The notes under the pieces were generated by a model. The model saw nothing but the letters and a program-made list of their open reading frames with translations, had not been told where the DNA came from and ran no database searches. From Chrysomallon squamiferum (Eukaryota > Animalia > Mollusca), in NCBI GenBank assembly GCA_012295275.1, contig CM022679.1, forward strand, positions 21,204,001 to 21,268,000: 64,000 nt of DNA, read 5' to 3'. The position numbers and the translations under genes were made by a program. Positions 6,751 to 64,000 of this stretch are shown here, piece after piece. Numbering within the stretch: the first letter of the stretch is position 1; each line of letters starts with the position of its first letter.

Positions 6751-9700
6751 ACTGTCCATACCGGCAATGAAAAGGTAATTATGAAGATATAGATTTGTAG
6801 ACAAAGACTAGTTACTGAGATCAATAAGGGTCAAGTCAAATCTCTGGTAAGGATAACAACCAGATTTTTTTTTTTTTTTTTTTTTTACTTCTTACATTAA
6901 TCAGTTGATTGCTCTGAGGTTCATTCTTCCAGCATTCGATTTATTTCTCAGCATTTCATATCCAGCTAATTGGTCGCTTCTGAAATCTTCCAGTTCATAT
7001 AATTGAGCCCTGCGGGTAGACCTACAGCAAACCTGTCCATCTGTTTTTATGTTTGTGAGGGTTATACAAGCAAAATTAAATCATTTAATTACCTAGTTTC
7101 CTTCGGATGGAAATATAGCTGGATTAATCTTACACTTTACTGCACATAAACTAGCTGCACCGACCATAAGCCTGCCTAATCCCCATTTTGAGAAGTGGCT
7201 TTTTAATTTATTTATGACACTGATGACACAAAGGATAGCTGACCCCTTTGAATGTGGTGGGCTATTCTGACTAGTGCCCCTGTTTTCCAAATAGACTGGA
7301 CTTACTGGCTGCACAATAGACAGTGCTACTGTTTTTTAGAGGTGTGACAGGTTGTTGATTGTCTGGTGTGACTGTCTCACCTCCAGCTCACCCCAGTTAT
7401 CTGTTTACCTGTATGGGATATTGGACTGGATATTAATCAAAGGAAGGAAGCAGAATGCCTCCATAAAACACAATGTCTCTATTTAGCCTTTCTGTTAACA
7501 ATATACATGTGAAATTCACTGTCTTTTCATTTGACACGTGTGTCATTACTGTCAAGGCGTGACTAACAGACATTAAGCTGTAAGATTGTTTTCAAGGCAG
7601 CTGGCAAGCAAGCCTCTGTATGCAAACTGGTTCTTTCTAGAGCTAAATGTACCTCTTATGTATGTACTTTGCTGTTGTATGGTGGTCTTGTTTTGTTTGT
7701 CATTGATGTGTAGATGTGCTGTACTGTACAAGAAAGTCACAAATGTGTGTTCAGTATTAATGTGAGAGTTCGGTATTGTACTATAATTTATAGTAAAAGG
7801 AGGACAGAAAAGCTTAGCTATGCACTGTTTTTTTTTAGGTTGATTTTCTTTTTTTTTTCACTTTATGAAAACTCTTCAGTCTGCCAGTGTTAAATAACCA
7901 AATGCATGGACACAAAAGGAATTTACTTTCAGGAATTTAATACATGAAGTGTGGCTGCCTTTATTGTGTTGAAGATTACTGTGTTTTGGTCCTAGCACGG
8001 ACTTGTGAATTCTTCAAGAGTTTGTGACTTCCTAGTATCTACCAGTCTTTGTCTGGTATAGCAAACACAACTTAAAGATTTTGTGTGTGACTGAGAAGAG
8101 TTGGGTCGTGCCAGAACGAAGGACTGGAGAATCACTGATTTTTGTTCTTGTTAGTGTTGTGAACAGAACCGTTGAACCAAGATGTTGATATATGTTGTTG
8201 GTCAGTCTGTTGGCAGTGAAGGGATTATTTATGAACATGATGGTGATGATGATGAGGAAAAAGGCTGTGTAGATGACGATGTTGGTTCATTGGTGCCCAC
8301 CAGTTTTCCAGATGTGTGCCAGAATGAATTGCAGAAAAGGTTGAAAATTAATATCTGTATTGTACACATAGTCATTTTTTAATTCATATTTACCTCGATC
8401 TTTATTAATTTTTTTAAATTTGGAAACAAGGATAAATTAAAACATTAATATTTGATAAACATACACACACACACACACAAACACAAACACACAATATTAC
8501 TGGCTACAAGCCAGAGTAAAAACTATATCACTAGCTGAGCTGGACTAATTCAATCACGTGAATAACATTATGGATTTCATAAAAACTTGTATATTGAATA
8601 TCACTGAAAACACATTTGGTATTTTTTTTCCCCCAGTATATGTTTTAAACAAAAATATATATAAACTGGGGACTATAAATTCTATTACTTATTAATTTAC
8701 CTTGAGGGCATTAATATAACACACTTTCACAATGATGCACTTTACAAATAAATCACAAAAAACATTATATGGAGACAGTCACTAAAAGCTGGGCATACAT
8801 TTTACTGATTTCTTAGTTTTGCTTCATCTCTCTTGGTTTCATGATAATGAAATTCTGTGCAGTTTCTGTTTGTTTTCATTTAAAACAATAAACATTTTAC
8901 TGAGAAAAAAAAATCAAGTTGCCAATAATTATAATGTATTAATATAACAAAATACATGTATGCATTTTCAATTGTCTTTAGTATATTATACTAGTGTTGA
9001 AAAAAGAAATCACTGTCATGTATTGGTCTAATGAAGTGAAGTAGATAAATGCATATTTCTCTGAACTGGAAGGATCAATACTTTATTTATTATTTTATTT
9101 TATATTTTTTGTAAACACATCCTGAAGCAAAAGCTGAATGTCTTGTAAACCAGGACAGCTTCTATTTTAATGAATTTCTTAAAAAGTATTTAAAAAAAAA
9201 TTAAAAAATCATCTCTAATCATTAACCTTGCTGGCAAGTGTCATTTGAAAATGTCAACTTTAATTGGGATGTCAAGTATTTAGCATTTGTCAAGATAAAT
9301 AAGACTAGCAAATATCAGCTGGCAGTGTGTTAAGTCTCATACCTGGTCAATGTTTGATACACCTGACCACATGTTACTGTCACTTTGAGTGCCTTTAACT
9401 TTTTACCTTTTTTCTTTCTTTTTTTAACTGTTATTCTTATTCTTTCTCTCTCTCTCTCTCTTTATCTATCTTTTTTTTTGTTATTCTTTCTCTTTACTAA
9501 GTTTTTTCTCTCTGTAAATATTTTCCAGTCCCAATTTTTAAAACATTTTCTCTGTTTGCTCTTTTCATTTAATTTGTGTTATATATATATATATATTGTG
9601 TTTCCTTTTCTCTCTGCTCTGTAATTTGTTTCTAAAACGTGTCTACCACTCTTCTCTTTCCTTCTTCCTCCTGTTCTTTTTGTCCCTGTCTTTCCAATCT

Positions 9701-12000
9701 CTTTCTCAATTTCATCTTTAGCCCATTTTTTAAAAACAAAATTGGTCTGGTTTTGCTTTTGAGCTGTCACTACTTGTCACTTTTTCTCTCTCTTACTCTT
9801 TCTAATTCTATTTCTGACTCCTCTGGCACTTTTTTCTCAAACTATTTCTATGAATAAATGAATCTCCATTAGTTTTAACAAAAGTTCATTGACAGAACTG
9901 ATGAATTATTGTTCGTGTGCTGACAGTAACAAGGATTTAAGTTATAATCTATTTTTATAACCCACACCAGAACAGTGGGTTACAGAGTTCATTGATAGTT
10001 ATGCAACAATTCAGTTCACAGTCACAAGGATATAACCTGTTTATGCACTGTGTCTGTCTAAAGTTTGATTAGTTCATTCTGACGAAACAAACTCCAAACA
10101 GAAAATAAAATGATTTTTACTGTATGATTTACAGTACATAGGTTTATGTTGAATTAAAGATATAAAAAAAAAGGAAAAAAAAAGTATTAATACATTAATT
10201 AATATATAGGCCTGTGTCTGGTCATCGGCAGAATTATTTTGTACTTTACATTATTTGGAATGTAGCAATGGATCTAAGAAACAAATGATCTGTAATATAA
10301 CCCTAGACATTGCCCTCTGTAAATCACTAAATGATTTATGTATTATTTGGCCTAAGTCTTGCCAGTTATTAGTAATGATTTGTATCATACATATGTATTG
10401 GAAACATTTGCATTGCCCATAAGACATCATAATTTGTTATCGTCATTATTTGTAATATATGTCTAGATCTTGCTCATAGAAACAACAATAATGCTTTGCA
10501 TTATGCATCATCTTAAACAAGATACCATTTTCTTCCATAAATATTTGAAACAAAAGCAAAGATCATCATTAGCATCAAATGTTATTTGGAATAGAGGCTT
10601 AGGGTTAGGATCATAGGAATGTCGGTTTGGGGATTGGCTATAAATACACAATATATGAAATTTATAACATATATTTATAGCCTCTTATAATCTTATCAAT
10701 GTTTTTCAGGTGTCTAATCATAATGTTATTAGTGTCACAAGAAACATGTTGAATAATATTTAGTATTTTTCTGATGTTTCCTTGTCTGATTCTGTAATCT
10801 AGCTCAGCCAGAAGACTGTTCATACTTGAATGCTGTAACTGTTGATATCAACATGTCTGTGTGTTAATATTTGCCTCAGCTATAATCACTTGTCACTGCT
10901 ACACCTGTCATCATAATGTTTAAAACAATATCTACCTCAGCCTGGCCTTTGTTGTAAACACACATGTTTAAAGTAGACTAAATGGTTGTAATAACAGACC
11001 TACTTGTCTCACACCTGGGTAATCTCTCTGTCTTATGTAATATACAAGTTGGTAGTTTTTTTTATATATATATATATGTATATGTATGCATGTATATGTA
11101 TGTTTATATCTACACATATATATGCATGTATGTGTGATTGTAAATAGTTTATTAAATACACATACCTTGATTATATATTGCTTTATTTACATAATTTGGT
11201 AGTTGTCTTAATTTAATATATATATATATATGTTATGTGAACATATTTTTAGTGTTTCATTTTAAAGTGAAGTAGATGTGGAATACCAAATTCCTATAAT
11301 GTACTTAAAATTATCCAGTAATAATAACCAAAATATTTATTATAAATTGTTTCACTCCAGCCACTTTCAAAAACAAACTAAAAAATAATTTTCTTCATTC
11401 TTTCTACTTGTAACCAGTGTTACCAGTCCAGAAATTGTCTCCATGACAATGACCTCTCCCAACCCAGAACATAATGAATTCTAGATGTTCATATTTATAC
11501 TGAATCTTTATAAATTAAATGTATTGTCTTCTGTATTTCAAACTTATCAAGTACTGTACCAGTTGGTGATGTTATGAATTGACTTTGTGAAGATAAGAAT
11601 GACTTCCTTGATGACTGTCACACACATTTAATAATCAGGAAGTGGGATATTCGACATTATTGTACATCTTGGTATCAAAACTATCCATAGAACAGGATTT
11701 AAATTTATATTAATTCATTATTTAATTAAGCTAACATGTCTTACTTGCATTTTAGAGTATATGTTTGATGTCTTTTCATTATAAAGTATATGTCTGATGT
11801 GTTTTTAACATCTATATTCTGAGTCTTTCTTACACTGGACCTTCATGATAAACTCTAGACCATATGCTCACTAGCAAGATATGTCATACTGTGGTTGGTA
11901 GTTGTTGTGTTAATTAACCAGTTTGTTACATGACGCTGTAGTGGGTGTAGTTCGGCTCAGTACTGTTTCCTGTGACTCACGGCCAGCTCTTGTTTTTCAG

Positions 12001-27900: not shown

Positions 27901-30840
27901 AATAAGTATGTCATTTTTTATTTTTTACAAGTAGAAGGAAGACGAGAATTTTGTTTTTAAACTATTTTTGTGTGGAAATAAAGTGACGTTATTATTAATT
28001 AACAAACCATTTTATACATTTATAAATAATTCTCTTTAATATATATTTATATATTCATTTACATAACTTAGTAGTATATTCCATTACTCAATAACATTTT
28101 TTTTTTTTTAAACTGTTATGCTAAATGCTTTTCTAATACAAGCAGAAGTCCATGCTGCGGAAGTTTTACACATGTGCTGAGAAGTGAAACATTTTACACA
28201 CAGCTTTTAACCAAATGCATGTTTAATGTGGGCATATTATTGTGAAGTATTATTCAAAATGGGATTTTTTATTACTCTAGGGATATAGATCTTTTTAACT
28301 GGCTGTGGGGAACATGAATATTTTATAGTAAAATGTTGTTTTAAAAAGAAATTAGGCACGAGAGTGTATAAATACTGGGGTTATTTTTTTAACAGCTTTA
28401 AAGCAATGATGAATTTAGAAATTAGATGACATATAGAAAAGGAATTGTGAAATGTGTATGAAGATGAATATCTGTTATGTGCAGAACCAGCTGACTAAAA
28501 CATTATAATATAGAAGTGAAATGTATACCTTTGTTAATATTCCATTATTTAGTTTTTAGCAAACAGCTCTCAGTTTCTAAAATTAATCTTTACTAATGTT
28601 CATGTTTTAAACATAGCCTGTAATAGGGTATTTTGATTTGTAAAACAGAATTTGTATTTGTAAAAAGAGTATTTTGATTTATAATACAGTGTTTTTTATT
28701 TGTAATGGGGTGTTTTGATTTGTAATAGGGTATTTTGGTTTATAATAGGTATTTCAATTTGTAATAGGGTATTTTGATTTGTTCAAGAGTATTTTGATTT
28801 ATAATAGGGTATTTCGATTTGTAATAGGGTATTTTGATTTATAATAGGGTATTTCAATTTATAATAGGGTATTTCAATTTGTAATAGGTTGTTTTCATTT
28901 GTTCAAGAGTATTTTGATTTATAATAGGTATTTCAGTTTGTAATAGGGTATTTTGATTTGTTCAAGCGTATTTTGACTTGGGGAAACAGATTGTTATCTT
29001 TTCATTCCTGAATCATTAACAAACATTTCTCTTAACATAGTGTGTATTAGTAGTGATAACAGTACTTTTAAATTGTGAACATTTGTAACAGTAACAGTTC
29101 AAAGCTTTAAGACAAGTTGCTTGGACAGCTTTCTAACCATCAGTTCACCAGGCACTCCTCAGTACACCATTAATCACTAATGTTAACATTTAAACAAACA
29201 CACAAGTGCATTTTAAAAACTAGCTGAAATTTTTTTTTTTAAATGCTTATGTTTTAAAAATAACCCTATCTGTCCATTTTGTCCCTCCTGCCAAAGAAAA
29301 AGCCGTTATCATTTCATTTAAAGGCATAAATATTTTTATTAATCCAGCATATATCACATATATTTTATAATATTTGTCATTAATTTCTTTTTTAAATGAT
29401 TATTTGTGTATCTATATGTTGTTCAACACAAAAGGATTCAAATTTAAATATAGAAATATTTTTTTTTAATATTTACCTAATCAAGTATAGATAATACAAA
29501 CTGAAAAAATACAAGTTTAAATAGATAAAAAAAACTGAAAAAAAAGTGACTTCTACATTTTGTTATTATTTATATTCATTAAGATACATTATTTCATATA
29601 TTATTTACAAAATTAACAATGTTATATTATATTTCAAACTGTTACAAACTGCACTGTTTATTATTATTATTATTATTATTATTCATGAATAAAAGTAAAA
29701 TATACACATCTATTTTTCACTTACTATAATGCTAAATGTCATATTTATTTAATTCAAATACATATTTCCATATTTTTAAAAATTACCATGAAATTAATAC
29801 AAATGATATTAAATGTGTTTCATAATTGAATATTTCAGAGGATGATAGGACAAATGAGGCTCCTAAACATAGCCTGTGCAGCCAAAGCGAGGGTCCGTAC
29901 GATAACCCTCACACGTGCTACCAGAGAGGAAATTCTTCACTTTCAGATTCTTGGAGGTTTGGAGCGTGGCCATGGCATCTTTGTTACCAAAGTGGAAAAG
30001 GGATCAAAAGCATTTGATGCTGGTTTAAAACGTGGGGACCAGGTAAGAGGTTTTTTTTTTGTTAAATACATTCTAACCATAAAGCAAATGAATTTTAATA
30101 TGCAACAAATTAAAAAATAAATAAAAAAATAAAAAATAAAAAACAGTCAAAAAATTTATTTGTAGAATATTCATTTTACATTTGATTAACTTAAATTTTA
30201 GAAATATTTTTAATCTTGTAATTATTTCAGATTTTAGAGGTAAACGGGCACAATTTTCAGCACATTTCACACAACCGGGCCCTGGAGATCCTACGAGGAG
30301 CAACCCATCTCTCCATCATGGTCAAATCTAATCTCCATGGTACGTACTGTCATTTTAAAAAAAAGTGTTTTATCCTGGCAGACAGGTTTAATCAATAACT
30401 TCTATGACCAGTTACATTGTTAGTGTGTTAATAAAAACTATGTCCTTGATCTTGATGAATATTTTTTCACTTGTAATTATGTAAACTAAAGTGTGCATTA
30501 GTAATGTTTTGTTTTTTTATGAATTAGAGTGCAATAATTTTTAATTTATTACTATGAAAACATAATTAAATATTAAAATGTTTTCAGATATTAATGCTAA
30601 AACATTAAAAAAAATAATTTAAAAAAAAATGAAAGAAAGAAAATAAAAATAATATATTTATTTATTTATAAGACAATCTTGGATTAAGATTTGTTTGAGA
30701 ATTTTTTTTTTTTAAATTAATAAATTAATTCATTATTATTATTGTTATTGTTTTTGTTATTATCATCAGCATCATTATTATTAAATAATATTTTTATTAT
30801 TTTATTAATGAATTATTTATTTATTTATGTATTTATGTAT

Positions 30841-30875
<35 letters not shown>

Positions 30876-33800
30876 TATTGTTCTCCATTCAGACTTCAAA
30901 GAAATGCTGCTAACAGCTGAGAAGGGAGCTCCAAGGAAAATGAAATCTCAGGATTTCATTCAGCCACCTCCTCCATTAAAACAGAGGTTGTCTGCCCCTG
31001 ATTTGGATATTCAGATTCCTGTAATACTGAAAGACAAGAAGATAGAAAAGAAGGATAAAGGCTTTACAATGTTTGGAAACAAACCAAGATTGAAAAAAGC
31101 CTTGATGAAAATGAATTTGTTACCAAAAAATTTAAATAGCAGGTATGTAAGTAAAAAAAAAAAAAAAAAAAAAAAAGTATTTTTATTTACACACATACAT
31201 ACATACATACATACATACACACATATACACACACATATTGTCTGTTTTATTTTTGTTTTTAGTTTATTATTATTTTTATTAATATTTTATTGTTATTGTT
31301 ATTAATATTATTATAATAAATTTTTACAGGATAATAGTTCTATTTAGTTAGTTATGGACAGATGTTGATTATTTTGTTTTCTTTTTGCCTTCTTAAATTA
31401 ATACATCTAGTGGAAGTAATATAATGTTAATAATTTATCTGTATTTATAATAAGTGTTATTTTATTTTTGATATTTACCTATTTCAAATGTTTTATTAAC
31501 ATTCATTATGTTATTTTTGTTATTGTTTGAATTATTTATTTATTTTGTATTTTTTACTCAATAAGATATAACTTATAAATAATTACCTGCATCAATGCAC
31601 TCATAAACTCACACTTTCTTTCCACATGTAATCTGTCTTTTTTTAAAATATTTTCATCTATTAAATTACATTTATTTCAGTGATGGCAATAACATGAATC
31701 ATTCAGATGAAAGCTTGTACACGAAGCCGTCGCGCAAATCATCAACATCGTCTACCTCATCATCGAATGCGGGATTGTCAAATCATCTGAGTGCTAGTAA
31801 CCCTGATCTCTCCAGCCTCGCCGTGCTGTCGGTGAACGACGTTGCCAACGATCTGCCAGACCACGTCATCAAAGTGTACAAAGCTGACCAGTCTTTCAAA
31901 TACCTTCCTATTCACAAGGTCAGTTGTCGTTTTTCAGTCTTTGTTGATTTTTGTGAAGGATTATTATTTAAAAAAAAAATTGTTAAGATAAATTTGTTTG
32001 ATATATATTTTTTTATAATGTGTAGTCATTATTATCATCATCATCATCATCATCATCATTATTAATTATTTTTAACATTATTCAGGAAACTACTGCCAAA
32101 GAAGTTGTAATGCTGGCTCTACAGGAATTTGGAATAACAGATCCTAGCTGGTAATTAAATATTTTAGTTTTATCTCTGTAGTATTATTTTTTAAATTTTT
32201 TTATATAGTTCAGATTTTAGGATATTAATAAAGTTTAAATTAAAATTAATTTTTTATCTTCCTGCTTCTGAATTATTAACTTTAAAGAACACATTCATTT
32301 CCATATTCTTACCAAAGTAATATTGATTTTTATATCAATTAATTGCTCAGAAGCTGTTTATATATATATTTAATTACTTATGGTACCAAAAAAATTATTA
32401 ATTACCAATTTTTTTTTATATCTAATATTACAGAAATTACTTGCTGGATATTAATTGTTATTACTAATTATTATTTATTATAGTAACTGCACAATTTTTT
32501 ATTAATCATTTATGGTATAATTATCATTGTTAATTTGTTATTAAACTATAAAATTATTCATTGGATTTTAAATTATTAATTACTTAATGAACATTATAAT
32601 TTATTTGTTAACTGAAATGTTATAAATAAATATTATTTATTGCATTACAGTAATTACTCAGTTGATATTATTAATAATTACTTAATATTGTAATTTATTA
32701 ATCAGATTTTATATTATTTAAGTAATTATATTATTTATTTTGATACTAATTGTTATTATTCACTAATATTGATATTTACTTTGTAAAAACAATTTCTGAA
32801 TGCATATCGATTATTAATTAATATTATAGTTTATTAGTGAGAAGTTTTGTTATTAAATTATAATTATAATTTGTTAGTTTAAATATAATACTCTTTGTTA
32901 CACTCACTGGCTATTACTTATTAATTAGTTAATTGTAATATTACTGTTAATTACTGATTTAACTGTGATGTTGTTTTTACAGTAACTACTCGCTCTGTGA
33001 GGTGACTGTTCAGAACGAGAAGGTTATCAAACAGAAGAGACTTCCTGACCAGCTACAGAATCTGCAGGAGCGTCTGGCTATAAATGGCCGGTATGTAACC
33101 TAACAGTGTTGAGTTTGATCTGTCTCTTTGTCTCAGTCTCTGTCAACTTCAAATCAGCAAACTTAGAAACTGATACAATCTGAGAATTCAAGCAGTCTTA
33201 AATTTTGACTACAAGAAACATTTTTTAGAAACTTGATTAAGATACGAAACTTCAGCCAATTTTGAAATTTTGACTACAATGAAAATTTTAGAAACTTTAG
33301 TTATATATATATATATATATATATATAAAACCCATTCTTTATTTCCAAATGTGTATTTTGAAATAATAGAACAAATTTATCTATTTTCAAACCCGTGTTT
33401 TTTAAAGTGGTGAAAAAAAAAAATTTACAATTAATAAATTTAAGATAAATAAAATTCACCATTATTCCTGCAGAAATAATTAGCATATATTAACATTTTT
33501 AATCTCAGTATCAGTTTCTCAGTTTGATGATTTGTTTTTTTAAATGTAATCAGGTAGTTGTGTTATGCTGTGTACTGAAAATGTCTAAATGTAGATGACT
33601 TATTATATTGTGTGTATATATATTAAACAGTATATATTTATATATATTAAAAACAAATATTTCTAAATATCTATATTTATTTAGTAAAATGTGTATTCTT
33701 TACTTACTAGCCTGTTGTGCATTCATGTTTGCAAGTAGATTATAATTTGGTGTTTCTAATAATTTTTATTTCCATAAAGAACAAATGAAAGAAGAACATT

Positions 33801-34857
33801 AATTTTCAACTAAATTAGAAATTGTTATTTTTTAAGATTAACAAAAAATAAATTATTTAATTTTACACAGCACAAAAAAAATAAAAAAAGTAAATAAATA
33901 AATAAATAAAAAGAAAAAAGAAGATATTATATTTTGTAAATCCCACAATTATTAATTACTTGGGATTTTTTGTTTTTCTCTTGGATTTAAAAAATAATAA
34001 TAATAATGTCAGGTTTAAAATGCACTTAATTTGACTAAAAATAAAAATAAAAATTTTAATATGATAAAACTGTTGTGATATTTTAATACTGAATACACGT
34101 GTGCTTGTGGTTCTTTTTTTCTCAGAGCACTGAAAACTTGCACACCATCAGATTTCAAAATACAAGTAAAATAAATTATAAAAAATTTTAAATACAAAAT
34201 AATTTTAAGATAGTCCACAAAAATCAAAACAAAAATCTCCAAAATTCAAAGATTTCATTCACTGAGATAAAAATTTAAAAAATTAAACCTTAGTAACAAA
34301 ATAAAATAATATAAAATGAAATAAAAAACAAATAAATAAATAAATAAAGACAAAAGATGAAACTAGTTGTAAAGCCCAGTATATATATAACATTTTGCAG
34401 CAAACATGAATCATCAAATCTGTCTTTTGTTTTTACTTTTTTTTATTTTTACTTTTTTTTATTTTTACTTTTTTTTATTTTTATTATGTTCTTAATTCTA
34501 AATTCAAATTTTAAAATTGTTTTTTTCTTAATTGTAATTTTAATTGTTAATAGTTCTGTGTAATTTTGAATAATCTGACAAAGTTGCTTTTGTCTGCATT
34601 GTTGTTTATGAGAACACAGTTCTACTTTTTCACACTGTTACTGAATTATCTGTACATGTTTTATGTTATTATTTCTCTTTTTAAATGTTTCATTGAACAC
34701 AGAATTGTGTTTTCTGGTCAGTCAGGCATCTTAGTAGGATGTTGTATTAAGGTTTACCAAGGCCTCAAAACTTTTCAATCTTAAATTTTTTTTAAATGTT
34801 TTAGTGAAATTACCAACAGAAATAGTACATGTAGGTATTTAAAATTTGAAAATTTGA

Positions 34858-34898
<41 letters not shown>

Positions 34899-36560
34899 TT
34901 AATTTCACTGTTTAAATTATTTCCATGAAAAAAAAAAAAAAAAATATATATTAATTTAACATTTCAGAATTATATAAATGGAAATAACTGTCAACAAATT
35001 TCTTTTTAAAAATTCAGCAGTGAAAACATAATTTTGTTGTTTTATTTTTAAATTATCAATTTAGTTTGATTTCAATACTGTCTTACAAAAAGCTTAAAAA
35101 TAAACCTTTAACATTGAAAACCGGACTTGGTAAGCCTTAAAAATATAATATCTGGTTTTGCTATTTAGTAAAAGAAAATGAAGTCAGGAATAATAAATAA
35201 TGTTTGAAAACTTAAAAAGAATTTTGCAGATGTATTACTTTGCCCAAAAGCCCCGAGCAGACAGCCCAACAAGATGAATTCTTTTCAATCACGGATCCAA
35301 AGATTTCAAACATTGAGATCATCACTAGTAAAGCTTTCAAAAAAAAAAAAAAATTAATAAATTAATAATAACAATTAAATTTAAAAAATAAGCATGCACT
35401 CAATGGCCCCATTGTTTTGCCGCTTTGACCCTGCAGGGTACTGTGTGCGCATGGGCTTTTTCATTTACATCATCACATTTTTAAAAACCCATAAAATTTA
35501 ATATTTTATTATTTAAATATATACATTTTTTTTTTTTTTTCATTCCTTCCTATTTAACCCCTCACTTTTGTTGCCATGGATACTTACAAATAGGGAGATG
35601 GTTTTTCTTTTCACGGGCCAAGACCTGACTAACCTTGGAAAGTTTTTTTTTTCTTCATATTTTTTTTTTTTTTTTTCCTTTCTTATGTGTGTTGTGAGGT
35701 GGTTTTACTTAATTTCTGTTTTATTTGCCTTAATTTCTGTTAAACTTACTTATCTCATTGTTTTATTGTTTTAAAACATGTTTGTAGAGTTTTCTGTTTA
35801 TATAGCTGCAGTGATGCATTGGGGGAAATTGATTTTTCAAACTTTATAACATATTCATCGGAGTGGGAAATTAAAAATTTAAATAAATGGATTGTAATGG
35901 AGAATTCTGTTTCACTGCAGTTGCTGTAATAAAAAAGTCTCATTTTGGTTTATTTATATTGATTCAAGTATGTGTATTCTGTCAGGTTCCATAAAGCTAA
36001 AATAAAAATGTGTTTTTTAGTACAAACTGAAATGCACATACTTGTTTAAATAATGAAAGTGATTTCCTAAACTGCTCAAGAAAGAAGTATTAGATTAAAA
36101 TCCTAGGCATTTCAACATAAAATAAACTGTTTTAAATTTAGTAATCGATAACTGTTGCATGGTAGAAATATTTTAAATTTTATCTCGACATTACTATTTA
36201 ATTGTGTGTGTTTTGTTTTATTAATTGTGTGTGGTTTTGCAAAGAGCATGAGCATTTTCAAGCTGTGTTGAAATTTGAAGTTTCTTTGTGTTCACCAATA
36301 ACATTCTAACTCAGCATGGAGAAACATAAATACAGTTTGTCATGAAATATTCTTTCTTGAAGCTTTAAGAAATACACAGTTGTATTAAATGCATGAGAAA
36401 ACTTGGCTGGAATTGTAAACACTATTTCATGTTCCTAAATAAGAAATTAAATAGAGAATTTTACGTTAAATAAAACACACAACTACATACAAATAATACC
36501 TAGCTGTATATATCCATACATTTCAATCCTTCCTCCCACCTGTCTCTCTTTCTTTCTCTA

Positions 36561-36619
<59 letters not shown>

Positions 36620-39600
36620 ATCAGACACATACATTATATCCTGCATCTGATTCACATAAAAACACACAATATTATCAATCAAATCATTGCTGTTGATAAA
36701 TTAACTGATATAATTAAAACAATTTAGTTTACCTCCAGCCAAGTTATAAACTTATTTAAACTCTTTTTTTTCCTTGTTTCAGTTTATTATTTGTTGTTCT
36801 GGAATGACTAATTCTCCTTTCATTTTAAAAACATGCATGATCCGTGTGATCTCCATTCCTCAGAATGTTTTTTTTTTTTTTTTTTTTTTATTATTTCTTT
36901 ATGTTTTAGCTTCAGTTTTCATTGTTGTCTTGCATGCTACATCCACAGCTATGGAGAAATTAGACTGCACCACAAAAATATTGGAAATGAAAGAAGAATT
37001 GTTTTTTAAATAAACTTTTTATTATTATTTTATCTTTTTAAATTCATTCTTAAGTTGAAATTTGTTAACTTTTTAAAGACTCCTTTATTTTATTATTATT
37101 ATTTTTTTTAATTTTATTTACAGATATAAGATAATAGAAATTAATAAATACATACTTGTAATTTAAGCACTTAGTTAACTTAACAAATTCAGTTAGATCA
37201 TAAACATTAATGGTAATGATGCTAAAGCAAAGCACAGTTAAATGAAACTATATATTTTAGTTACATTAGATATTAGTACCTAACTTACTTTAGATTCACT
37301 GGTAGGCACAATTCTAATTTCTCTGTGGGACAAGTTTCAGAATGTACGTTGTGTAATTCATATTAACAGAAAATATTTAAAATTTTCAATTTTCAGTTCA
37401 GTTGTATATGCCATGTCTAATATACAGAATTTTCATTCAGTTGTTAGGAACTGTAAACTTCTTTTCAAAATTTGTAAAAATTATATTATTCTTAAAACAG
37501 CTGCATAAAATACTATGGCTGTTTCTTTTGTGTCCTTTTGATTGACTGAAGCCTTTTAATATTTAAGATATTATTTATTGATATATATAAATTCTGTCAA
37601 GACAGATATCGTGTGTATTTATCCTTATATTTATAATTAAATAAATAATAATAATTTTAGCATAAATAATATTAGTGATAGAAAAATGATTAAGGAAAAA
37701 TTATACTGTTAACTGATTACACATGTACATTCTGAGCTTAATATTAATCATTATTCATCATCCATCCGCATGAAATAGCATGCAGATCAGATTAAAAATA
37801 ATAATAATAATAAAATAAAAGACATATTTTATTGTCTAACAATTTTTTTATAATGAATTTGAATTGAAATTTTGGTTGTTAAATCTGATCTGCATGCTGT
37901 ATTATTAAAGATTTTGGGAACAATACATTTTAGAAATTAAAAATTAATTCATTAACAAATATTTAAAAAAATAAAATAAAATAAAGAAATAATAAAAAAA
38001 AAAAATGTCCAACAATAATAATTATAATAATAACATAAATAATAACATGAACTTTCTGAAATGAGTTTCCCAAATTCTGTAGCAAACACACATACACATA
38101 CCTCATCAGTTATCCAAGCATAATGTGTGCGACACACAAAACAATCCCCTTGTAAAATGTTAGAAACTGGGACACCAGTCGGTCAGCTCGGGGCTAACAA
38201 TGTGTTAATTCTCCACTTGACTCAGGCGATCTTGTCCTCGTGTGCTCAGGTATTACCTCAAGAATAACCTGACTACGGACACCCTCGTTCCCGACGAGCT
38301 GATGGGAGAGCTGCTGAAGGAGAGCCAGATCAGCTTACTGCAGCTCAATTCAGGCGAGGTGGCATCCCAGCTCACCTTGGAGGACTTCAAGGCGTTTCGA
38401 GAGATGGAGCCCACGGAATACATCGACGATCTCTTTAAAATTGACTCCAAGTTTGGATGTCCTAATCAGAAGAAGTTTGCTGAGGTGAGGGAATGTTTTT
38501 CTTTCATTAATTTTATTTTATTTTATTCTGTTGTACTCTATTCTATTCTATTCTATTTATTTATATATTTATTTTATTTATTTATTTATTATGAAATTTT
38601 ATTTCATTAATATTATTTTTGATGATTTTAATTTAAAATGTTGGTAATATGTAGTTTGATTTTAATGTTCATAAACAAACGGAGTAGGCCAAACCACTAT
38701 AACTGAGCAGTTACATCACTTTGGTTTGATTTTAATTATGCTGACTTTTAATCAAAGCTTTTGTTACTATTGTGAATTTTGAATTTTGAATTTCTTTACA
38801 TAGAAGAAAGTTAATTCTGTCATTTAAAGATGTGATAAGTGTCAAAATCTGATCTGAATTACAGTGATTACATTTTTAAATATATATAAAAAAATAAATA
38901 AATATATAAATAAATAAATAAAAAGTGAACTGAATTTGGTAATAAGTTCTGTAAAATATACTTATTACCAAAAAAAAATAACAAACAAAAGTACAAATAA
39001 ATATGTCTGGGTTTTTTTTTCTAAATTATAATTTTAATTTCTTATTATTGTTGTTTTTCAAGTATTGGTTTTAATTGTTGGATTTTTTGTTGTAGCTGGT
39101 CAACCGAGAGATGTTCTGGGTAGTGACAGAGATTTGTTCAGAAACCAGTCTAGTCAAACGTGCAAAACTCCTCAAACATTTCATTAAAATAGCAAGTAAG
39201 TAAAACCAGCTCACACATCTAAAACTAATTTCAGCATATATATATATATATATGGATGTATGTTTCTAAAACGTAAATAAATATTTTGTCATTTTATTAT
39301 ATTTTATTTTATTTTAACTAATTTATTTATTTATTTATTTATTTATTATAAAATTTTATTCCATTAATATTATTTTTAAAGGTTTTAATTTAAAAGGTTG
39401 GTAATTGTTTAACTGTTTTATTCCACAGAACACTGTAAGGACTGTAAGAACTTCAATTCACTGTTTGCTATTCTCAGTGGTCTTGGACATCAGTCAGTGA
39501 CCAGGCTACACAACACATGGGACAAACTGCCCAGCAAATATCTCAAAATGTTTCAGGTAGTCAGTCACCTTCTCTCATTCACTTATTTTAACTTAGTTTT

Positions 39601-41730
39601 TCACTTACTCCTTTGACTAATCATTAATTTACTCCTGACTCAAGTGTTTGAGTTACTCTTGATTCATTTACTGTGAAGTAATTTGATTTGTTCTGTTTGA
39701 ATCAATTGATTCATTTACTGTGAAGTAATTTGATTTGTTCTGTTTGAATCAATTGATTCATTTACTGTGAAGTAATTTGATTTGTTCTGTTTGAATCAAC
39801 TGATTCATTTACTGTGAAGTAATTTGATTTGTTCTGTTTGAATCAATTGATTCATTTACTATGAAGTAATTTGATTTATTATCTTTTATAGTTTTTGGCA
39901 GTTGACAGGTTAATTTTATTACAAGAAGACAAACACATTTCATTAACTGAGTTTCTGAAATTATTTTTTATATTATTTTATTTTATTACATTCACTGAAA
40001 CAAACTTGTTATTGTTTTATTAATTTTATTTTCTCTTTGTTTTTACTGAAATAGTGATAAGCAATAACAGATGTAATTACTTTTGTTTTTTCTTTTAAAT
40101 CATTATTTTAGTTCTGTTTTTCACCATTAATTTTTGAATGACATTATTATTATTTTTATATATTTAATTTTTTTAAAAGAAAAATCTTAAAAAAATATCC
40201 TTACTTACTATATTTGTTTATAATATTACTGATATAATAATATTTTATATTTTTACTTTTTAAAACAGGATCTTCACAATATTATTACACAAAATATTAG
40301 ATATAATATTTTACATTTTTTTCCAGGCTCTTCAGAGTTTGATGTTTATTTGTATTTCAAACAGTATTACTGATAAAATGTTTAATATTTTTCAGATTTT
40401 TTCAGGATAATAATATTTTACATTTTTAGTTTTTAAAACAGGTTCTTCAAAGTTTGATCTTTTTTTTTTTTTTTTTTTAATGTACATAATATTGCAGATA
40501 TAATAATGTTTTTTAATTTTTACTTTTTTCATAACAGGATCTTCAGAGTTTGATGGATCCATCAAGAAACATGGCAAAATATCGCAGCCTTATTAACAGT
40601 GAACACACACAACCTCCCATGGTGTGTCATAAGTTTATTTATTTCCTGTGATAAATCCTATTTTCTTGTTAATCATTTATTAATTACTGAAGTGTACAAT
40701 ATGAATATTAAAATTTAATAGTAATCAAATAGCTTATTTTATTTCAAAAATATGATTTATTGGTTTCTGTTTATTATTGAATATATGCTGTAGAATGAAT
40801 CATTGCAGTGATGACAAAATAAATTAAAAGTGATATATTGGATGTATGGATAGATGGACAGATAACCAGATAGATATATTTTAAACTGGATGTAGTTGAT
40901 AGAAAGAAAATTGGTTTGGAAAACTAAACATTTTGTTTTGTATCTCCAGTAGCAATGCAGAATAATTTTCCTATTACCCCAATTTTTTTTTTTATAATTA
41001 ATAGATTTATTTTAAATCGTTTTTCTAACAAACACAACATTAACAAAAATTGGACTGCCTCAGAAAATCGTTCATAATGGGAGTTAATTTCTATTTCTGT
41101 TTCTCTCAGCTTCCATTTTTCCCACTGGTCAAAAAGGATTTAACATTCATTCACCTTGGTAATGATTCCATTGTCGATGGACTGATTAATTTTGAAAAGC
41201 TCCGAATGATTGCCAAAGAAATCCGACATGTGTGCAACATGTGTTCTGCTCGTTACGTAAGTAAATTTATCAGTTTTTAATCTCCTATCAGTCGGTTAAT
41301 GTAGAAAGTTGTTAGTGTAGCCCAATTTACCATTACTTTGTGTTTTGTTACTGTTAAATTTTGTTGTATATGTTCTGTGGGTGCTTTGAAAGTAAATTGA
41401 AAATGTTTTAAGAATTATTATTTCTGTTTCAGTCCAGGGATATAGATAGATAACTGTACAAACTGATTGAAATTTACTGTATTTTTAAATCTTTTTTTGT
41501 TTTTTTGTTACTGATATATTTAGCTGAGTTTGTAATAAAATGAATTGAGAACTAAAACACGGTAATAAAATGACTTGTATTACTTTAGATTTATTGTTAA
41601 AAACTTGAATAGTTTAAAAATAACTTATTCTACATATAGTGATAAAAACTTAAACACAGTTTTAACATGACTTACTTTACTGTAGATATGTGGTTAAAAA
41701 CAGTTTTAAAACAACTTACTTCACTATATA

Positions 41731-41777
<47 letters not shown>

Positions 41778-44700
41778 ATTGTTTATTTTATTAAGTTGTA
41801 ATAAAAACTAAAAACAGTTATTTTTTTGATTATTATTATTATTTATTATCATCAAATAATAATATTAAGATTTTGTCCTTTGGCATTCACTAGATGCATT
41901 TCCATGTTTGGTGCAGATTTTTTTTTTTTTTTTCACTTTGTTAATACAGAACTAAGCTGTGTTGTTGATATCAGTAACACAGTATTGATTATTTGTCTTA
42001 ATGGATATTTGAAAAGACTTCAGTCAATCTCAACATGTTCTGTTAACGATTTCTTCATTAGAAATTAGTTGATTTTTTTTTTTCCCAGCCTATCTTGTGA
42101 TTAACCCTTGAGCATTTGAAAAATTGTGTTTTATCAATAGTAGAATCTAATATATATTTCTGGTAATATTATTTTTTATTTTATTATTATTTTTTTAATT
42201 TCATTTAATATTATTATTATTATTATTTTCATGTGTTTATTTATTGTTATAATTATAATTAAGAATTAATTGATTGATTTATTGATTTATCAATAGTGGA
42301 ATTTTAAATATATTTTCAGTAATGTTACTAATGTTTTGGGGTTTTTTTTTTTTTTAATTTCATTCATGATTATTATTATTATTTATTTTAAAAAATCTTT
42401 ACTTTTATTATTATTTTCATTTATTTATTTATTATTATAATTATTTGTCATTATTAATTGACTGATTTATTGATTAATTAATTAGTAATAATAATTTTTT
42501 TCTATTTTTTTCTTTCTCTTTTCTTTTCTTCTTCCTTTTTATTTGGTTTCTTTTTAAATCCTACAACTTTATCCAGAGACTTATTTTTATCTGTTTGCCT
42601 TTAGAAATTATAAAAGTGTTTGATAAACTATTTTTATTATTTTTATTTTTCTAGGATGTAAGCAACATGTTTCTAGGATCCTCAGGAATGTTTTCTAGTT
42701 CTTTTGTTTCAAGTGTCGCAACATTAAAACGATCAAAGAACCGACGAGCTTCAACTCTTCCAAACCTGAAAAAAATGTATGAAGAGGTAGGTTGTCATGA
42801 AAATATGTGTCTCTCAGCTTTAAACTTATTTACTGTCTAGTTAGAAGTATTTGTGTTTATTAATATGTATTTGAAACAGGCAAGAAGATAACTGCAGGTG
42901 CAGTGATTAAATTTTAATGCAGTTTTAACTTGACTGGACTCTAGTTTTATTAGCACACCTCTCTGATATCTCATATTTTGCATTATTACAGTTTTATAAT
43001 AAGAAATTCATTAAACTGAAAATACTTAATATTAAAAATAAATCTAACTTTTTAACTTTTTTTAATTAACGTTTGATGATGCATACAAATAAATTAAATA
43101 TGTATTGCAAACATTTTAGTTAATGTTTTTGTCAGCCACATTCTTTATAATAAATTATTTAAATCAGTTTAAATTGAAAAATTATGCAGGTTAATTTTGT
43201 TCAGCCTATTTTTGTAACTGTTGGAAAATAAAACTAAGATAAAATTTGGTATTTGTTGTTACAGGCTCAGATGGTTCGGCGAGTGAAGTCTTATCTCCAG
43301 AACATGCAGATTACAACAGATGAAGAGAAACTGAAAGACATGTCCCACAGATGTGAACAGCCAGGTGTGTGTAATAACAGTAACAACCTGATGTTGCTAT
43401 TATTATTACTATTATTATTATTGTTACTGTTATTATTAATGTTGTTTTTTATCTTTAACATATGATTTTATTATTTTTGTTATTTTTAAATTACTATTAT
43501 TAGTGTTACAATTAATGTTTTATTTTTATATTAATAATAGATATGTGTTTATTGTTGTTATTTATAAAATTATTATTTTATTATACTGTGTCTGTTGCTG
43601 TCATAATCAAAGGTGTTTCTGTTTTACAGTAATTATCAGTAATGTACATTTTTATTATTATTTTTAAATTATTACAATTTTTTTATCACACTGTTATTAT
43701 TACTGTCATTATTATTAATGTTTTTTTGTCTGTTTGTTATTAATTTCAAAGTATGTTATTAATCATCCTAGTTAATGCTTTTATTTAAATCAGTATTGGT
43801 TTTTTTTTTATTGTAAAAGAAAAAAATATTTCACAATTGTGAAACCATTCTTAGACAAATTAAAATATATATATATAAAAAAGAAAAAAAAATATAATAA
43901 GAAGAAGTTAATAACTTTCAGTTTGTGCAGAACTAACTGCCATTGATTATTTTAATTGTGATTACTGATTCTGTTGTTGTTAATATTTGACTAAATAACT
44001 TTATATTTTTTGTAATTATTGTTGTTTTTTATCTTCAGCTCGTCGAAGAGACACCTCACCAAACATCCCTCAGGGCTCTCCTGGCCACAAGATAGACGAG
44101 ACTAAACTACTGCAGTCTGGACCCAAATTCGGTAAACACAACTAAATACAGTGAAACATGTTTTAACAGCTTCTGTTGCTAGAGTTATCTCATAACCCGT
44201 TTCTTTATTTCAGTAGAAAACATCTGCGATGGTTGCCCACTCCATTCAGCTAATAACAACTTTCGTTTTAAACAGTGCTGTATTTGTTATTGTTTCTATG
44301 AATTGTCAATGAATAGTGTTTCTTTTTCTTTCTTTTATTTTTTTTATTTTTTTTTTACTCCCAGAGCATGGATATTTTTCTTTTTAATCTAAAGTTCATA
44401 AATTAAAACTTCTGTTTTATTTTAATTTTTTTCTTTATATATTTTCTGCGATTGATTGTTGAATGATTTATTTATCGGTATTGTATCCCAGTAACCTCTG
44501 CATGGTTGTCATAGTAACCTATCAAGGGATTATTGGGGATTATCCAGCTTGAGGTTTATTTTACAATATGTGTACAATGTAAACAAAATGGTGGCAAGGA
44601 TTGTTTTGAAATGTTTGGCTGATTTTTGCTTCGTATTTTATCATTGTGTCATAAAATTATTTATTTTGATAAATAAACATGCATTTTTTTAATTTCATGC

Positions 44701-47700
44701 TGACAAATTGAAATTGGTATTTTTAAGGAATAATATTCTCTTATTAAAAATATTGTGTCCTGGTAGCAGACAATATCAATTCTGTTACACACAAAATACA
44801 AAGTTCTTACATTAAAGTGAAATTACACAGAATACTTTAATTCAGCTTATACACATAACACAAAACTGAAATCACACTGGTGTAGATCATTTGACAATAA
44901 AACAAATTGTGCACCACTTGTGAATACAGTTCTATTCTGTATTACATGGTAAATTAGGTACCCAAACTGCCTTAATAATACCAGTTATATTTTTGTAGTA
45001 TTTGTTACATTATAATATATTTTTATAGGTGAATGTGGCAAAAATATAAAGTAAAATACTCACGTTACATGAATTATGCATATTACAGTAATTCTGTTTA
45101 ATTTACTGCATTTGATCAGAAAAATAAAATAGTTTATTAATACTGCAATAATAATAATAATAATAAATAAATAAATAAATAAAATTTAAAAAATTATTAT
45201 TCTTTAATAAAGGACTTTAAAAAAAGAAAAGAAATAGTAATAATAATAATTATGAATAAATAGAGATGTAAAAAAAAAAAAAAAAAAAAAAAAATTACTG
45301 TATTTTAATAGTAACAGATTTCAAAAAAAAGAAGAAAAATATCAATTCAGTTACAAAATTATTGCTAATAATAAATATAAAATTGAGAAAATGAATCTAC
45401 ATATTTAGTGCCTGTTATTAACAATCTCTGTGTGTGGAATGATTAAAAACTATCCATCATCATCATTACCACCACCATCATCATCATCATCATCATCAAC
45501 TACATTAACTCAAGTTTGTGCTTTTTCTAAATTCTGTACAATTAATAACGAGATTTCAAAACTAGTCACAATGTCCAACAGAAACACATTGACGCCGACG
45601 AGGTTGCTGAAAATGTTAAATGCTGATGTCGCTGATCTTTTACCATCAGGTTCAGAGTCACCAGGGGCAGTTCGCAAGATCATGGCTTTGACGGACAAAG
45701 TTCGTCCTCATAACCCCAAAATTCCCGTTCCAGCAGTCACTAGCCCCATCTCGGGGCGCCGGGGCCAGACTTCACCCCGCCACGGGGCGAGGCTGCAGCA
45801 CATGGTACACCTGTCTCCTGAGAGCTCCTCCGTCATCAGTCTTAGTAACATGCATATAGGCAAGCCCATTCGAACGGGTAAGAATGGCCGCCACGTTTTA
45901 ACAGGCTTTCCCCTTGTTGTCAGTGGATGAAATTTGTTGTGTAAATATTTGAATGCTAATAGGAAAAGTAATAGGAATTTAGGATGTTTTTTTTTTTTTT
46001 TTGTGAATTAAATGTAAGAATGGTTTAATTATTGAAGATTTGAAATTAATATATTTATTTAATTTCGTTATGTTTTATTTATAGTTATTTCGTTCTTTTA
46101 TTTCATTTTATTTTTTTAAAATTTTAATTATTATTATTGTTGTTATTTTTGTTTATTTATTTAGTATTAAAAAAATCACAAAAACATTTGGGTGGTCATT
46201 TATCCTTTCCTTTAATGGAAAAAAACTAAAACTATTAATAATTTGCAAATGTATTACGAAGCCTTTCAATTTGATTGATATAAAAACTTTGATTCAGAAA
46301 TTAATTTTGAAAACAAAATAAACAAAAATAAAATAATTTTCATTTACACAAGGGAAAGCCCAGGCCAGTGCATGCATGGGGGATGCATGCTATGATCTGT
46401 TTTGTGTCGCTTTTGTGTTGCTTTGTGAATGTTTAGCTTGTTCTATCATTTATTTTCATTCTCTTATTGATTTTATAAAGCATTATTTTTTTTTTTTTTT
46501 TTTTCTAATTTCTGAAGTCATATTTGTGAGAAAGCCTGTCATTTACATTTGCTTTATGAATTTGAGAGCATTCCATTAATCACTGGATTTGGTACATTGA
46601 TTTTGTTTTTTTGTTTAGCCGAGAGAAAAATATCGACAGAGATTTGTTACAGATGTATAATAATGTCTGAATATTAATAATTTTTATAATAATAATAATG
46701 TTGCATCTGTTTAAAAAATATTTTTAATAATAATAATAATAATGAATAAAAGATAACAAAAAAAGAATAAATTAATTTTTAAACATATGAAAAATAATAA
46801 TATTACAAATGAAAAAAGATAATAAGATACACAAAAAATATTAAAATTAATAAATACTGTAAGAAAATAAAAGACAACAAAAAATTACATTGTAATTTTT
46901 TTTTTTTTTAATTTTAATAATTTCTGTTTATTCTGTATTATTTTCTTCTAATTTTTCAATTTCTGTCAGTTCATAGACATAATAATAAAAGTAATAGTTA
47001 AATAGTTTTATTTTCCTAATTTATTTGTATAATTTCTCAATATTTTATATAAGTATTATTTTTTTTCCTTCTTCTTTTAAAAAAAAGCAGGAGAAAGGGA
47101 TATAATTTGTGTCTGTGTCTGTGTCATATTTGTATTGTTCTACATAATATCTGTATATTAAACCAGTGATGTTTGTAATTCAGCATCTATAGGTTCTACT
47201 GACTCAGCGAGCCCCACAAACAGTGTGAAAAGTTACCAGCAGCAGAGCTCCTCCGAGACAGACTCGGGTCACTGCTTCGACAGCCACAGCAGCAGTTCCA
47301 TTGGCTCCTACAACTCTCCTCCAGAACTGAGAAAGGCTGGACAAGCAGGTACACACCGTTTCATAGTTAATTTTCCCATCTTTACATTTATATTTAGTTT
47401 AATATTTAATGTCGAAATAGTAGACACCACCATATGTTAGCAGGTTCACTGTATTTAATGCACACATTAGTTAAAGATATTTATTTAACTTTAAATTATT
47501 TACTTCAGATTTATATTTGGTTAATGTTTACTAATATTAAAACAGCAGATGCTCATACCTTGATTTGGAATAAAGTAGAAATTAGAAAATATTTTCTACA
47601 CTTACAAATTATGTATATCTTTTATTAATATTTATTGTTGAAACAGTAGATGACTCATACTTCTTAGATGTATGTTGTGTTGTCTGCATGTTTACATAGA

Positions 47701-58985: not shown

Positions 58986-59317
58986 GTAGTAGTAGTAGTA
59001 GTAGTAACAGTAGTACGAATAGTAGTAATTCTGATTGCGACACAGAAGGAAAGTACTCAGTTTTCTCGGCACAGTTATTGTTCTGTTGATGATTGTAATA
59101 ATATCTTTGTTTACCTTGAATAAAAATCTGCATTGTGGAATTCGCGAAATCAGAACCGATATGGAACAATGTGTTGTGTTTTGCTGTGAGCCTTTGTGTG
59201 TATGTAAAAGCGTGTGTGTACGTGCATTTGTGTATATTAACAATCTCAGATCATTAATCAGTGTATCTTCTAATTTGTTTTGATAAGTATATGTACTGTT
59301 TTACTAAAATAATAAAA

Positions 59318-62189: not shown

Positions 62190-64000
62190 TTAAAAGATTG
62201 TAGCAACCTTAACAACAACAGCAACAGTGACAGGAAATGATGTAGAAATATAATATTGAAAAAGTATTTAAACAGAAAATGATATATAGGTAGATAGATA
62301 AAGAGATAGCTAGAAACAGCTGTTAGATAGATAGTTAGAAAGATGGATGGATGGATGGATGGATGGATAGACAGATGGGTAAATGAATGAGAAGAGAGAG
62401 ACAGAGAGAGCCTAAAAAAAAACCAAGAACCTTCCCCACCCACAAAACAACCCCCAAAGAAAAATACTACAAACAAACAATAACAACAAATAAGTTAAAA
62501 CTCTTACATTTTAATCAACAGTCTGAAGCGATGTTTTTTACGTATTTTTAAAAAACGACTGCATCTTTCACGTTACGTGCAAGTGAACAGTTTGCGAGGC
62601 GAGCGAGGACAACAAAATGCTGGAACACAGGAGTCTGAAAACGGAGATCCCCGTGGGAACAATAACTGTGCCGAGTTACTGATTGAGTGCTTTCCTCCTG
62701 CACCGCAATCAGAATTTCTAACTAACCCAGCCGAAGCCAAATAAAGGATCCTCGCAACTGCCAGTCGCACCTACTTAACAGCGCTGCCGTCTGTTTTTAC
62801 TGCAGCCGTCGCTAATAAACGCTTCTAATCGACTCTCTGTTGAGTGTTTATGATGTCATATATTTCATTATCGGCCGAATAATAGAACAACATCTGCAGA
62901 GAGGCTGCTTGACGTAAAACTTTACAGTTGCGTCTTCTCATCACGGTGAAGTGATTTTGAAGTTCTTGCTGATGATCATGGTTATGTCAGAGATTATTTT
63001 TTTTTATAAATGTCTGTGTAGTTGTTACGTTTGTTGCTGGGGTATAATCTTTCCTAAAAATAAAATATGACGACTGTAAAGCAACACTACGTAGAAACAT
63101 ACCTGCATCCAGACAGAGAGGTGTGTACACTGGTACAAATATCAGTCCATCGATAGATCATCCATGTGTACGTACATATACATACGTACTTAATTAATAC
63201 GTACACGCCAAACATAAATATATACATACACACATACACTCACATACATACATACATACATACATACATACATACATACACTCACATACATACATACATA
63301 CATACATACACAGTTAGACAGACACAGACTACATTATATTAATGATAGGATAAACCTACGTTATATCTGTACAGCAAAGCCTTTTTCTTGTTATAGATTG
63401 AGAACGCCAAGAGCGATGATGTATTTAATATGAAATGTAAATGACAAGAAACGAGTCAATTTCTTGTATGTTGGGATATTGAACACCGTTATTGATTGTT
63501 TGGTTCCTTTTAGCGTCCTTTGTCACGGCTTGGATTAAAGACACAAGCTGAAAACTGTCGCCTCAAATGTCCATTGTGTTCAGCGTCGAGTCTGTTTGCG
63601 AAATACTTTTCAAGAAAGACCACATAGCACGCATCGTTTAAAAAATAGAAATAGGAAATGCTACAACAGACAATTCGTGAATTTTGCATTGTTGTTATTT
63701 ATTTATTTACTTATTTATCTTCATTATTTTAAAAATTCTATCAAATTCCGATATGCATATGTTTATGCTGTGTGTGTGTATTTAGATATGTCTTTATGTG
63801 TATTTATTATTAATTTATTTTTAAAAATAATATTCTCATTTTATCTCTAGGGATTAGAGCTGATTTAGAGTTCACATTGTATGAATAATACAATATGTTT
63901 GGTTCTAAAGTTAATTAGCTTCTGCAGTATCTATTTATGTATGTTTGTATGAATGTATGTAGGTACGCATGTACGTACTGTATAAATAAGAATGTATTAC

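Follow-up and report, generated by a model that had tools for sequence, protein, structure and literature searches.

This analysis concerns a 64-kb stretch of genomic DNA from the snail Chrysomallon squamiferum (hereafter the window, meaning all 64,000 nt), the + strand of which carries a PDZ-GEF (RAPGEF2/6) gene, and in particular one intron of that gene, at 33091-38249, which ends in two in-frame acceptors 24 nt apart. What emerges is that this tandem acceptor is conserved, and that a predicted long-range RNA helix, conserved in its position, probably lies at its branch point. As to what such a helix would do, the explanation favoured here, to which about an even chance may be given, is that in the snail the helix (H1) would compete with pairing of U2, a small nuclear RNA (snRNA), at the putative first branch point (BP1), bias splicing towards 38250, and loop out 2.9 kb of the intron.

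The identity of the gene is clear. Exons of homologues map to the window in order, and the exon sequence at 38251-38484 is 94% identical to Gigantopelta aegis XP_041363202 (a protein with the domain order cNMP, REM, PDZ, RA, RasGEF) and 82% identical to Haliotis, which would make the animal most likely a near relation of Gigantopelta among the gastropods. The intron is of phase 2 and splits NG-R/YYLK: the upstream exon (32983-33090) encodes most of the C-terminal part of the RA domain, ends at NG-R and is followed by the donor GTATGT at 33091, while the downstream exon (38250-38484) encodes the last RA strand, YYLK, then a linker and the start of the RasGEF domain.

The tandem acceptor and the eight-residue insert

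The two AGs end at 38225 and 38249, and splicing to 38226 adds RSCPRVLR in frame, these eight residues being encoded by the 24-nt alternative segment between the acceptors (38226-38249). The putative BP1 is the branch-point-like GGCTAAC at 38192-38198, with its A at 38197, 28 nt before AG 38225; the putative second site (BP2) is CTTGACT at 38215-38221, with its A at 38220, 29 nt before AG 38249. Both AGs, both branch-like adenines and the insert had been pointed out in an earlier account made from the letters of this DNA alone (the sequence-only reading), and all are present in the sequence. That account had also located the insert at the junction of the RA and GEF domains, and here it needs correction, as the insert falls inside the RA domain: Pfam PF00788 comprises residues 762-845 of the protein P0001, and the insert follows residue 839. 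When the Mytilus form is modelled with AlphaFold, at a mean pLDDT of 57, the insert occupies a low-confidence loop directly ahead of the last RA strand.

Evidence from other species comes chiefly from a protein survey, covering those 261 fetched proteins, of 303, that have the RA-end motif. No insert is present in 164 of these, while 91 have an insert of the eight-residue type, four have one of nine residues and two have both. The exact sequence RSCPRVLR occurs in 8 of the 10 Gigantopelta isoforms, and variants found elsewhere include RTVPCVLR, RALPRVLR and RTLPPVHR. Forms with and without the insert are annotated in gastropods (Gigantopelta, Haliotis, Patella, Littorina, Babylonia and Aplysia) and in bivalves (Mytilus, oysters, scallops, Mya, Dreissena and venerids); these isoforms are gene-model annotations rather than counted reads, and their numbers are uninformative as to abundance. 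The insert was not seen among the entries listed for octopods (16), chitons (7), Lineus (13), Lingula (5) and Tubulanus (2), nor at the RA-end junction in any vertebrate protein fetched.

At the DNA level, a metagenome scan supplied two genomic loci, L001 and L002, that are clam-like by protein similarity (L001 offering only 837 nt of the intron); orthologous DNA was also sought in viral and prokaryote collections, where none was found. Both clam loci have the same pair of AGs at the same 24-nt spacing, and in both GGTTAA(C/T) stands 31-33 nt before the first AG, so that a motif GG(C/T)TAA(C/T) occurs 28-33 nt before the first AG in the snail and both clams. In Mytilus-like contigs, too, the insert is contiguous with the exon, since reading frames that begin in the intron continue across the insert and on into exon sequence. 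Judged from these orthologous sequences, the second acceptor is an old, conserved feature of gastropods and bivalves, and both acceptors would appear to be used across the two classes.

The rarer nine-residue inserts deserve a brief comment of their own. In L002, positions 10744-10761 (- strand) form a candidate 18-nt in-frame microexon ending in NAR, resembling the nine-residue inserts of Mya and Dreissena; the clam microexon peptides have no match in the snail intron. Among the 15 Dreissena isoforms listed the nine- and eight-residue inserts never occur together, whereas they co-occur in Mya and Mercenaria.

For the source species itself, the RNA data consist of assembled contigs from three of the four RNA runs of one study, together with one unlabelled, DNA-like run. 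The joint 33090>38250 is present in all three RNA runs (depth 88.8, 37 and 37.5). Unspliced contigs span much of 34960-36531 and, in one run, also 37830-38278, and in X1 the depth of the unspliced intron is 12-16 as against 86-89 on exons; nascent RNA, intron retention and DNA are all possible sources of this cover.

The predicted long-range helix

The upstream arm of H1 (D1, 35249-35262) lies within an element at 35246-35267 for which the sequence-only reading had proposed two mutually exclusive complements in the same intron, a local one at 35436-35460 (D2) and a distant one at 38182-38195; the letters at all three places are as that reading gave them. It is the distant complement that forms the downstream arm (E1, 38182-38195). 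The computed duplex bears out the complementarity claimed over 2.9 kb: it has 13 bp and an energy of -26.8 kcal/mol, and it ends 2 nt 5' of the branch-like A at 38197.

In assessing how far this exceeds chance, the branch-adjacent 25-mer was held fixed against shuffled introns or shuffled targets, for a pair that had been picked post hoc by the sequence-only reading. On a score for compact helices, itself selected after the result of a looser score was known, 13 of 1000 introns shuffled in blocks did as well as the distant pair, as did 23 of 1000 shuffled targets; on the looser score it was matched by 6 of 60 shuffles. A search of the whole window for seeded duplexes within 5.2 kb gave 704, among which the pair ranks fourth, from which it follows that helices of this strength exist elsewhere in it. 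The core 10-mer of H1 occurs once per strand in the 64 kb, and in the DNA-like run, the cover of which is patchy here, neither arm shows a repeat pile-up.

Some further results concern the setting of the helix. In an unconstrained fold of 35200-38300, H1 forms unforced and BP2 is left free, and in a cofold scan the windows containing D1 rank first of 79. The intron holds four duplexes of -22 or below, a number reached by 0 of 150 block shuffles (twelve fixed 5.2-kb tiles of the window hold 0-2 each), and the loop that the distant pair closes contains three of these four. The stems predicted within that loop include one at 35798-35930 (-22.8, though absent from the 3.1-kb minimum-energy fold), one at 36400-36745, in which 36400-36411 pairs with 36734-36745 (-23.2), and a hairpin at 37774-37900 with a stem of 18-19 bp; a long hairpin with a similar core is present upstream of the branch point in both clams. 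Taken alone, the snail data suggest a helix moderately beyond chance.

The helix was also looked for in the clam loci. The two clams share 86% identity over the 60 nt that immediately precede the branch point, as against 49% at 300-400 nt upstream. If the snail is a guide, the 25 nt in front of the first branch point should have a distant partner upstream, and L002 has one, with a different sequence but at the same position: the best partner of its branch-adjacent 25-mer lies 2.5 kb upstream (-28.1, where strand and reversal nulls give -17.2 and -18.5), is equalled by 0 of 60 shuffles in one test and by 6 of 1000 in another, and forms a duplex that likewise extends to 2 nt before the branch A. 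Two more blocks conserved between the clams have partners of their own in the same 260-nt cluster of L002, in nested order; the upstream arms (- strand) are at 10583-10610, 10518-10534 and 10351-10370, and the branch A at 8076, so that the cluster is 2.3-2.5 kb from the branch point. A cofold of the last 115 nt gives five nested antiparallel helices at -50.4, compared with a median of -9.9 over 76 windows, and in the multi-helix comparison with shuffles the value of -51.8 kcal/mol was reached by none of 70, which averaged -10.8 and at best gave -25.0; when other acceptors of L002 were put through the multi-helix test, the two tried gave -18.4 and -15.0. This multi-helix result is strong evidence for the predicted long-range helix. 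Among the three loci compared, complementary intronic boxes at orthologous positions are predicted strongly in L002 and moderately in the snail, and comparison of the orthologues suggests that a helix at the branch site may have been kept although its sequence has turned over.

Alongside these results, a similar hairpin core, TGCA(A)GAT, is present at 37774-37900 of the window, about 690-782 of L001 and about 8180-8255 of L002, and a 12-nt copy of the 3' arm of the snail hairpin recurs at 38846, in the next intron. A pairing of E1 with the downstream exon at 38290-38303 (-24.5), which by eye appeared to covary, was rejected because it does not stand out from synonymous recodings, of which 51 in 300 did as well for the window, 74 for L001 and 33 for L002. 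Local folding on its own is unexceptional: the folds of 35200-35480 (z = -0.92) and 38100-38280 (z = -0.29), and those of the two clam intron ends (z = +1.79 and +0.88), are not unusually stable. A scan of 33000-38500 against Rfam gave a single match, with an E-value of 2.9 and far under the gathering score, and so no family.

Proposed mechanism and competing explanations

Pairing of U2 snRNA at the branch point is established splicing biochemistry, and the mechanism favoured here builds on it. Pairing of 35249-35262 with 38182-38195 probably masks the putative branch point of the first AG on its 5' side; by pairing the GCT just before the branch A the helix would compete with U2 snRNA, lower the use of 38226 and shift splicing to the second AG (38250). 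Where the helix was absent or unwound, BP1 and AG 38225 would be used, and the loop that precedes the last strand of the RA domain would then be longer by the eight residues. The helix would also loop out 2.9 kb, and pairing of D1 with D2 would not be required. Of the acceptor switch put forward by the sequence-only reading, a conserved second acceptor with a predicted long-range helix finds support, and the likening to docking and selector pairings does not.

There are clear caveats to this explanation, and they may be collected here. When H1 is absent, prediction places BP1 of the snail in a short hairpin of its own, so that the direction of the effect is uncertain and H1 could instead expose BP1. 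No joint to 38226 occurs in the contigs of the three RNA runs, which drop rare variants; the short form is present and probably the major one, while absence of the long form is not thereby demonstrated. (A comparison of the junctions 33090>38226 and 33090>38250 had been proposed; only the latter is found, in material blind to minor forms.) The snail multi-helix test is weak, its best value being -18.0 against a minimum of -15.2 for reversed sequence, and for the cofolded segment that holds D2 as well as D1, 15 of 70 shuffles were as good, which is not significant. In a calibration on other acceptors, 4 of 27 reached 5 or fewer of 100 shuffles (the three orthologous sites gave 5, 3 and 19 of 100), so that the test may be lenient and the single-helix p-values are soft. 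One orthologue, L002, is informative for the helix. L001 gave 112 of 1000 and 7 of 70 shuffles as good, with two different candidate partners, and its partner at -852 (39 of 250 and 112 of 1000) was not taken as support. Finally, between the snail and the clams the likeness of the arms is about 50%, so that homology of the helix is positional; arms paired across classes give -13 to -16, as against -21 to -28 within a class, a comparison biased by selection.

Several of these same points serve the explanation that chance is at work, which is unlikely: the tandem acceptor would be real, the snail duplexes would be matches between GC-rich islands, branch strength and proteins would decide between the acceptors, and the clam structure would be specific to its clade. 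Besides the results of 15 of 70 in the multi-helix test and 6 of 60 in the loose test, the low-scoring control acceptors and the want of alignable sequence between the arms, it can point to three duplexes of the window that are stronger than this one, only one of which belongs to this intron. However, it has to accommodate a structure in L002 at just the position predicted from the snail, and the formation of H1 in the global fold.

A second explanation, improbable to a similar extent, retains the local partner in a two-state switch. D1 would pair first with D2; persistence of that pairing would free E1, which would fold onto the signals of the second acceptor and favour 38226, while displacement would yield H1 and favour 38250, the ratio depending on elongation rate. 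D2 (35436-35460) starts at an acceptor-like AG (35435-35436), and part of it, 35443-35454, also pairs weakly with 38124-38138 (-17.0). The local complementarity is present, with computed energies of -24.9 to -26.5 kcal/mol (-24.9 kcal/mol for 35246-35267 with 35436-35460), albeit with large internal loops, and it was matched by 16 of 500 and 20 of 1000 shuffles, for a pair chosen post hoc. When it is forced in the fold of 35200-38300, E1 pairs with BP2, as the switch would have it, but the resulting fold lies 11.8 kcal/mol above the unconstrained one. In both clams the 24-nt segment is a better partner for E1 (-21.3 and -20.7) than each of the 35 24-mers taken from the exon; against synonymous recoding the signal there is modest (152 and 50 of 1000), and in the snail this pairing is absent, 822 of 1000 recodings being as good. 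For Mytilus the pairing of E1 with the 24-nt segment was tried by back-translation, and a rank of 4 in 25 was uninformative and was set aside. In neither L002 nor L001 was a local partner of the upstream arm comparable to D2 found. In its widest form, for which the chances are equally slender, such a switch would have been kept since the gastropod-bivalve split, a branch-adjacent element toggling between a distant partner, which would conceal the first branch point, and a local one, which would conceal the signals of the second acceptor, and the speed of transcription setting the length of the loop in the Rap-binding RA domain; clams would couple loop length to inclusion of the microexon, and the arms would have been rewritten between the classes. 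All in all a competing local pairing is doubtful, although the local pair is possible as a kinetic intermediate, formed first during transcription.

It could also be that the helices act chiefly as an RNA bridge, looping out 2.5-3 kb so that pseudo-exons are concealed or an internal donor (that of the clam microexon, or GTAAGC at 35130 in the snail) comes to lie near the acceptors, with the overlap of BP1 incidental; this seems less likely again. In its favour, the upstream arm lies 116 nt after a candidate donor-like GTAAGC at 35130-35135, which is the only GTAAG(T/C) hexamer of the snail intron, and the corresponding arm in L002 lies about 135 nt after the candidate microexon; isoforms of Mya, Dreissena and venerids carry a nine-residue insert at this intron, and acceptor-like sites are present inside the loop, at 35436 and in the CTGACTAAC at 35625. 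Against it, no joint to an intronic exon is listed in the contigs of the three RNA runs, none of the 10 Gigantopelta isoforms has an in-frame microexon, and the helix stops exactly at the branch site in both the snail and L002. The last explanation, that the helices are mainly substrates for A-to-I editing by ADAR near splice signals, is very improbable: a single A>G at 36401, within a predicted stem, appears in one of the RNA runs while the DNA-like run lacks it, but it comes from one contig and may be an allele rather than an edit, and no A>G is seen in either arm of H1 or at the branch A where these are covered.

The interior of the intron offers a number of separate observations. An in-frame cassette exon at 35230 or 35437 was considered and rejected, there being no suitable in-frame donor, in-frame stops and no RNA joint; the sole exception as regards the donor is a 6-nt candidate for 35437, with a weak donor. 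At 35065-35135, the GTAAGC at 35130 together with AGs ending at 35064 and 35092 would define frame-breaking exons of 65 or 37 nt, possibly a poison exon; RNA depth in X1 rises from about 5 to about 12 near 34900, and no joint was seen for this exon. At 35392-35494 there is an acceptor-like site ending at 35436 (CTCAAT, a pyrimidine tract and CAG) followed by an 18-codon frame to a stop, which with AATAAA at 35928 could serve as an alternative terminal exon and so leave out the GEF domain; a homologue truncated in this way was not found, and truncated RA-terminal isoforms, sought among the 261 motif-bearing proteins, are absent there. The perfect CTGACTAAC at 35625-35633 is a branch- or QKI-like motif which can pair near 34720 (approximately 34716-34730; -17.3), crossing H1.

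Elsewhere in the window, sequences upstream of the acceptors 45649 and 44038 (45584-45608 and 43957-43981) have partners about 1.05 kb upstream that 0 of 100 shuffles match. Long inverted matches of 19-21 bp link 59033-59090 with 62655-62720 and about 60800 with about 63960, and may represent a dispersed repeat present in several copies; intronic tandem arrays with units of about 41 and 20 nt can be made out by eye at 39660-39880 and 28680-28970.

Significance and comparison with known systems

Long-range RNA structures that steer splicing have been documented mainly in insects and vertebrates. The split between gastropods and bivalves is Cambrian, and if the structure described here is functional it would have been kept across these two mollusc classes without recognisable sequence identity, and so would be of a type missed by screens based on sequence conservation; it would also act on the branch site rather than on the AG. 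The locus offers a small, testable system for the regulation of acceptors that are a few codons apart, and it draws attention to a Rap1 activator with an isoform, as yet unstudied, that differs in the RA domain. Searches of the open-licence literature found no long-range splicing structure for a mollusc or for a PDZ-GEF, nor any description of this site.

The sequence-only reading had drawn its analogy with the docking and selector sequences of Drosophila Dscam1 and 14-3-3zeta, and the likeness to that system, as described in PMC6071210, is that one snail element has two mutually exclusive complements in a single intron. Beyond this the analogy fails. There is no duplicated cluster of mutually exclusive exons in the snail (tblastn found no second copy of either flanking exon within the intron, and an insert of that kind is missing from all 10 Gigantopelta isoforms), the partners are not repeats placed before each exon, and the second partner, costly as it is in the computed fold, was not found in the clams; with neither a duplicated exon cluster nor a conserved second partner, this is not docking and selection of the Dscam type. 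Human ATE1 (PMC7797038) shows competition between local and long-range pairings with co-transcriptional folding, and would be the model for the two-state switch, except that in ATE1 two mutually exclusive exons are governed.

A closer parallel is afforded by Drosophila Atrophin (Grunge) and Nmnat, for which Raker et al. 2009 (PMC2724269) describe conserved long-range intronic stems proven by compensatory mutation. The stem in Atrophin suppresses a proximal acceptor that adds in-frame residues, and there, as predicted here, an intronic helix acts at a distance on the choice between proximal and distal acceptors. The Atrophin stem contains the proximal acceptor itself, and most of the stems in that account avoid the branch point, whereas the helix predicted here would mask the branch site on its 5' side and the span is 2.5-3 kb; moreover, the mollusc helix is not conserved in sequence between classes and is itself a prediction.

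At the level of the protein, one further case invites comparison, namely exon 21A of RAPGEF6, which is likewise a 24-nt alternative segment in a PDZ-GEF and, according to PMC10178952, is reported to lower the interaction with Rap1. That segment is a cassette exon under the control of NOVA2 and lies downstream of the RasGEF domain, whereas the mollusc segment arises from a tandem acceptor inside the RA domain, and the two are different events.

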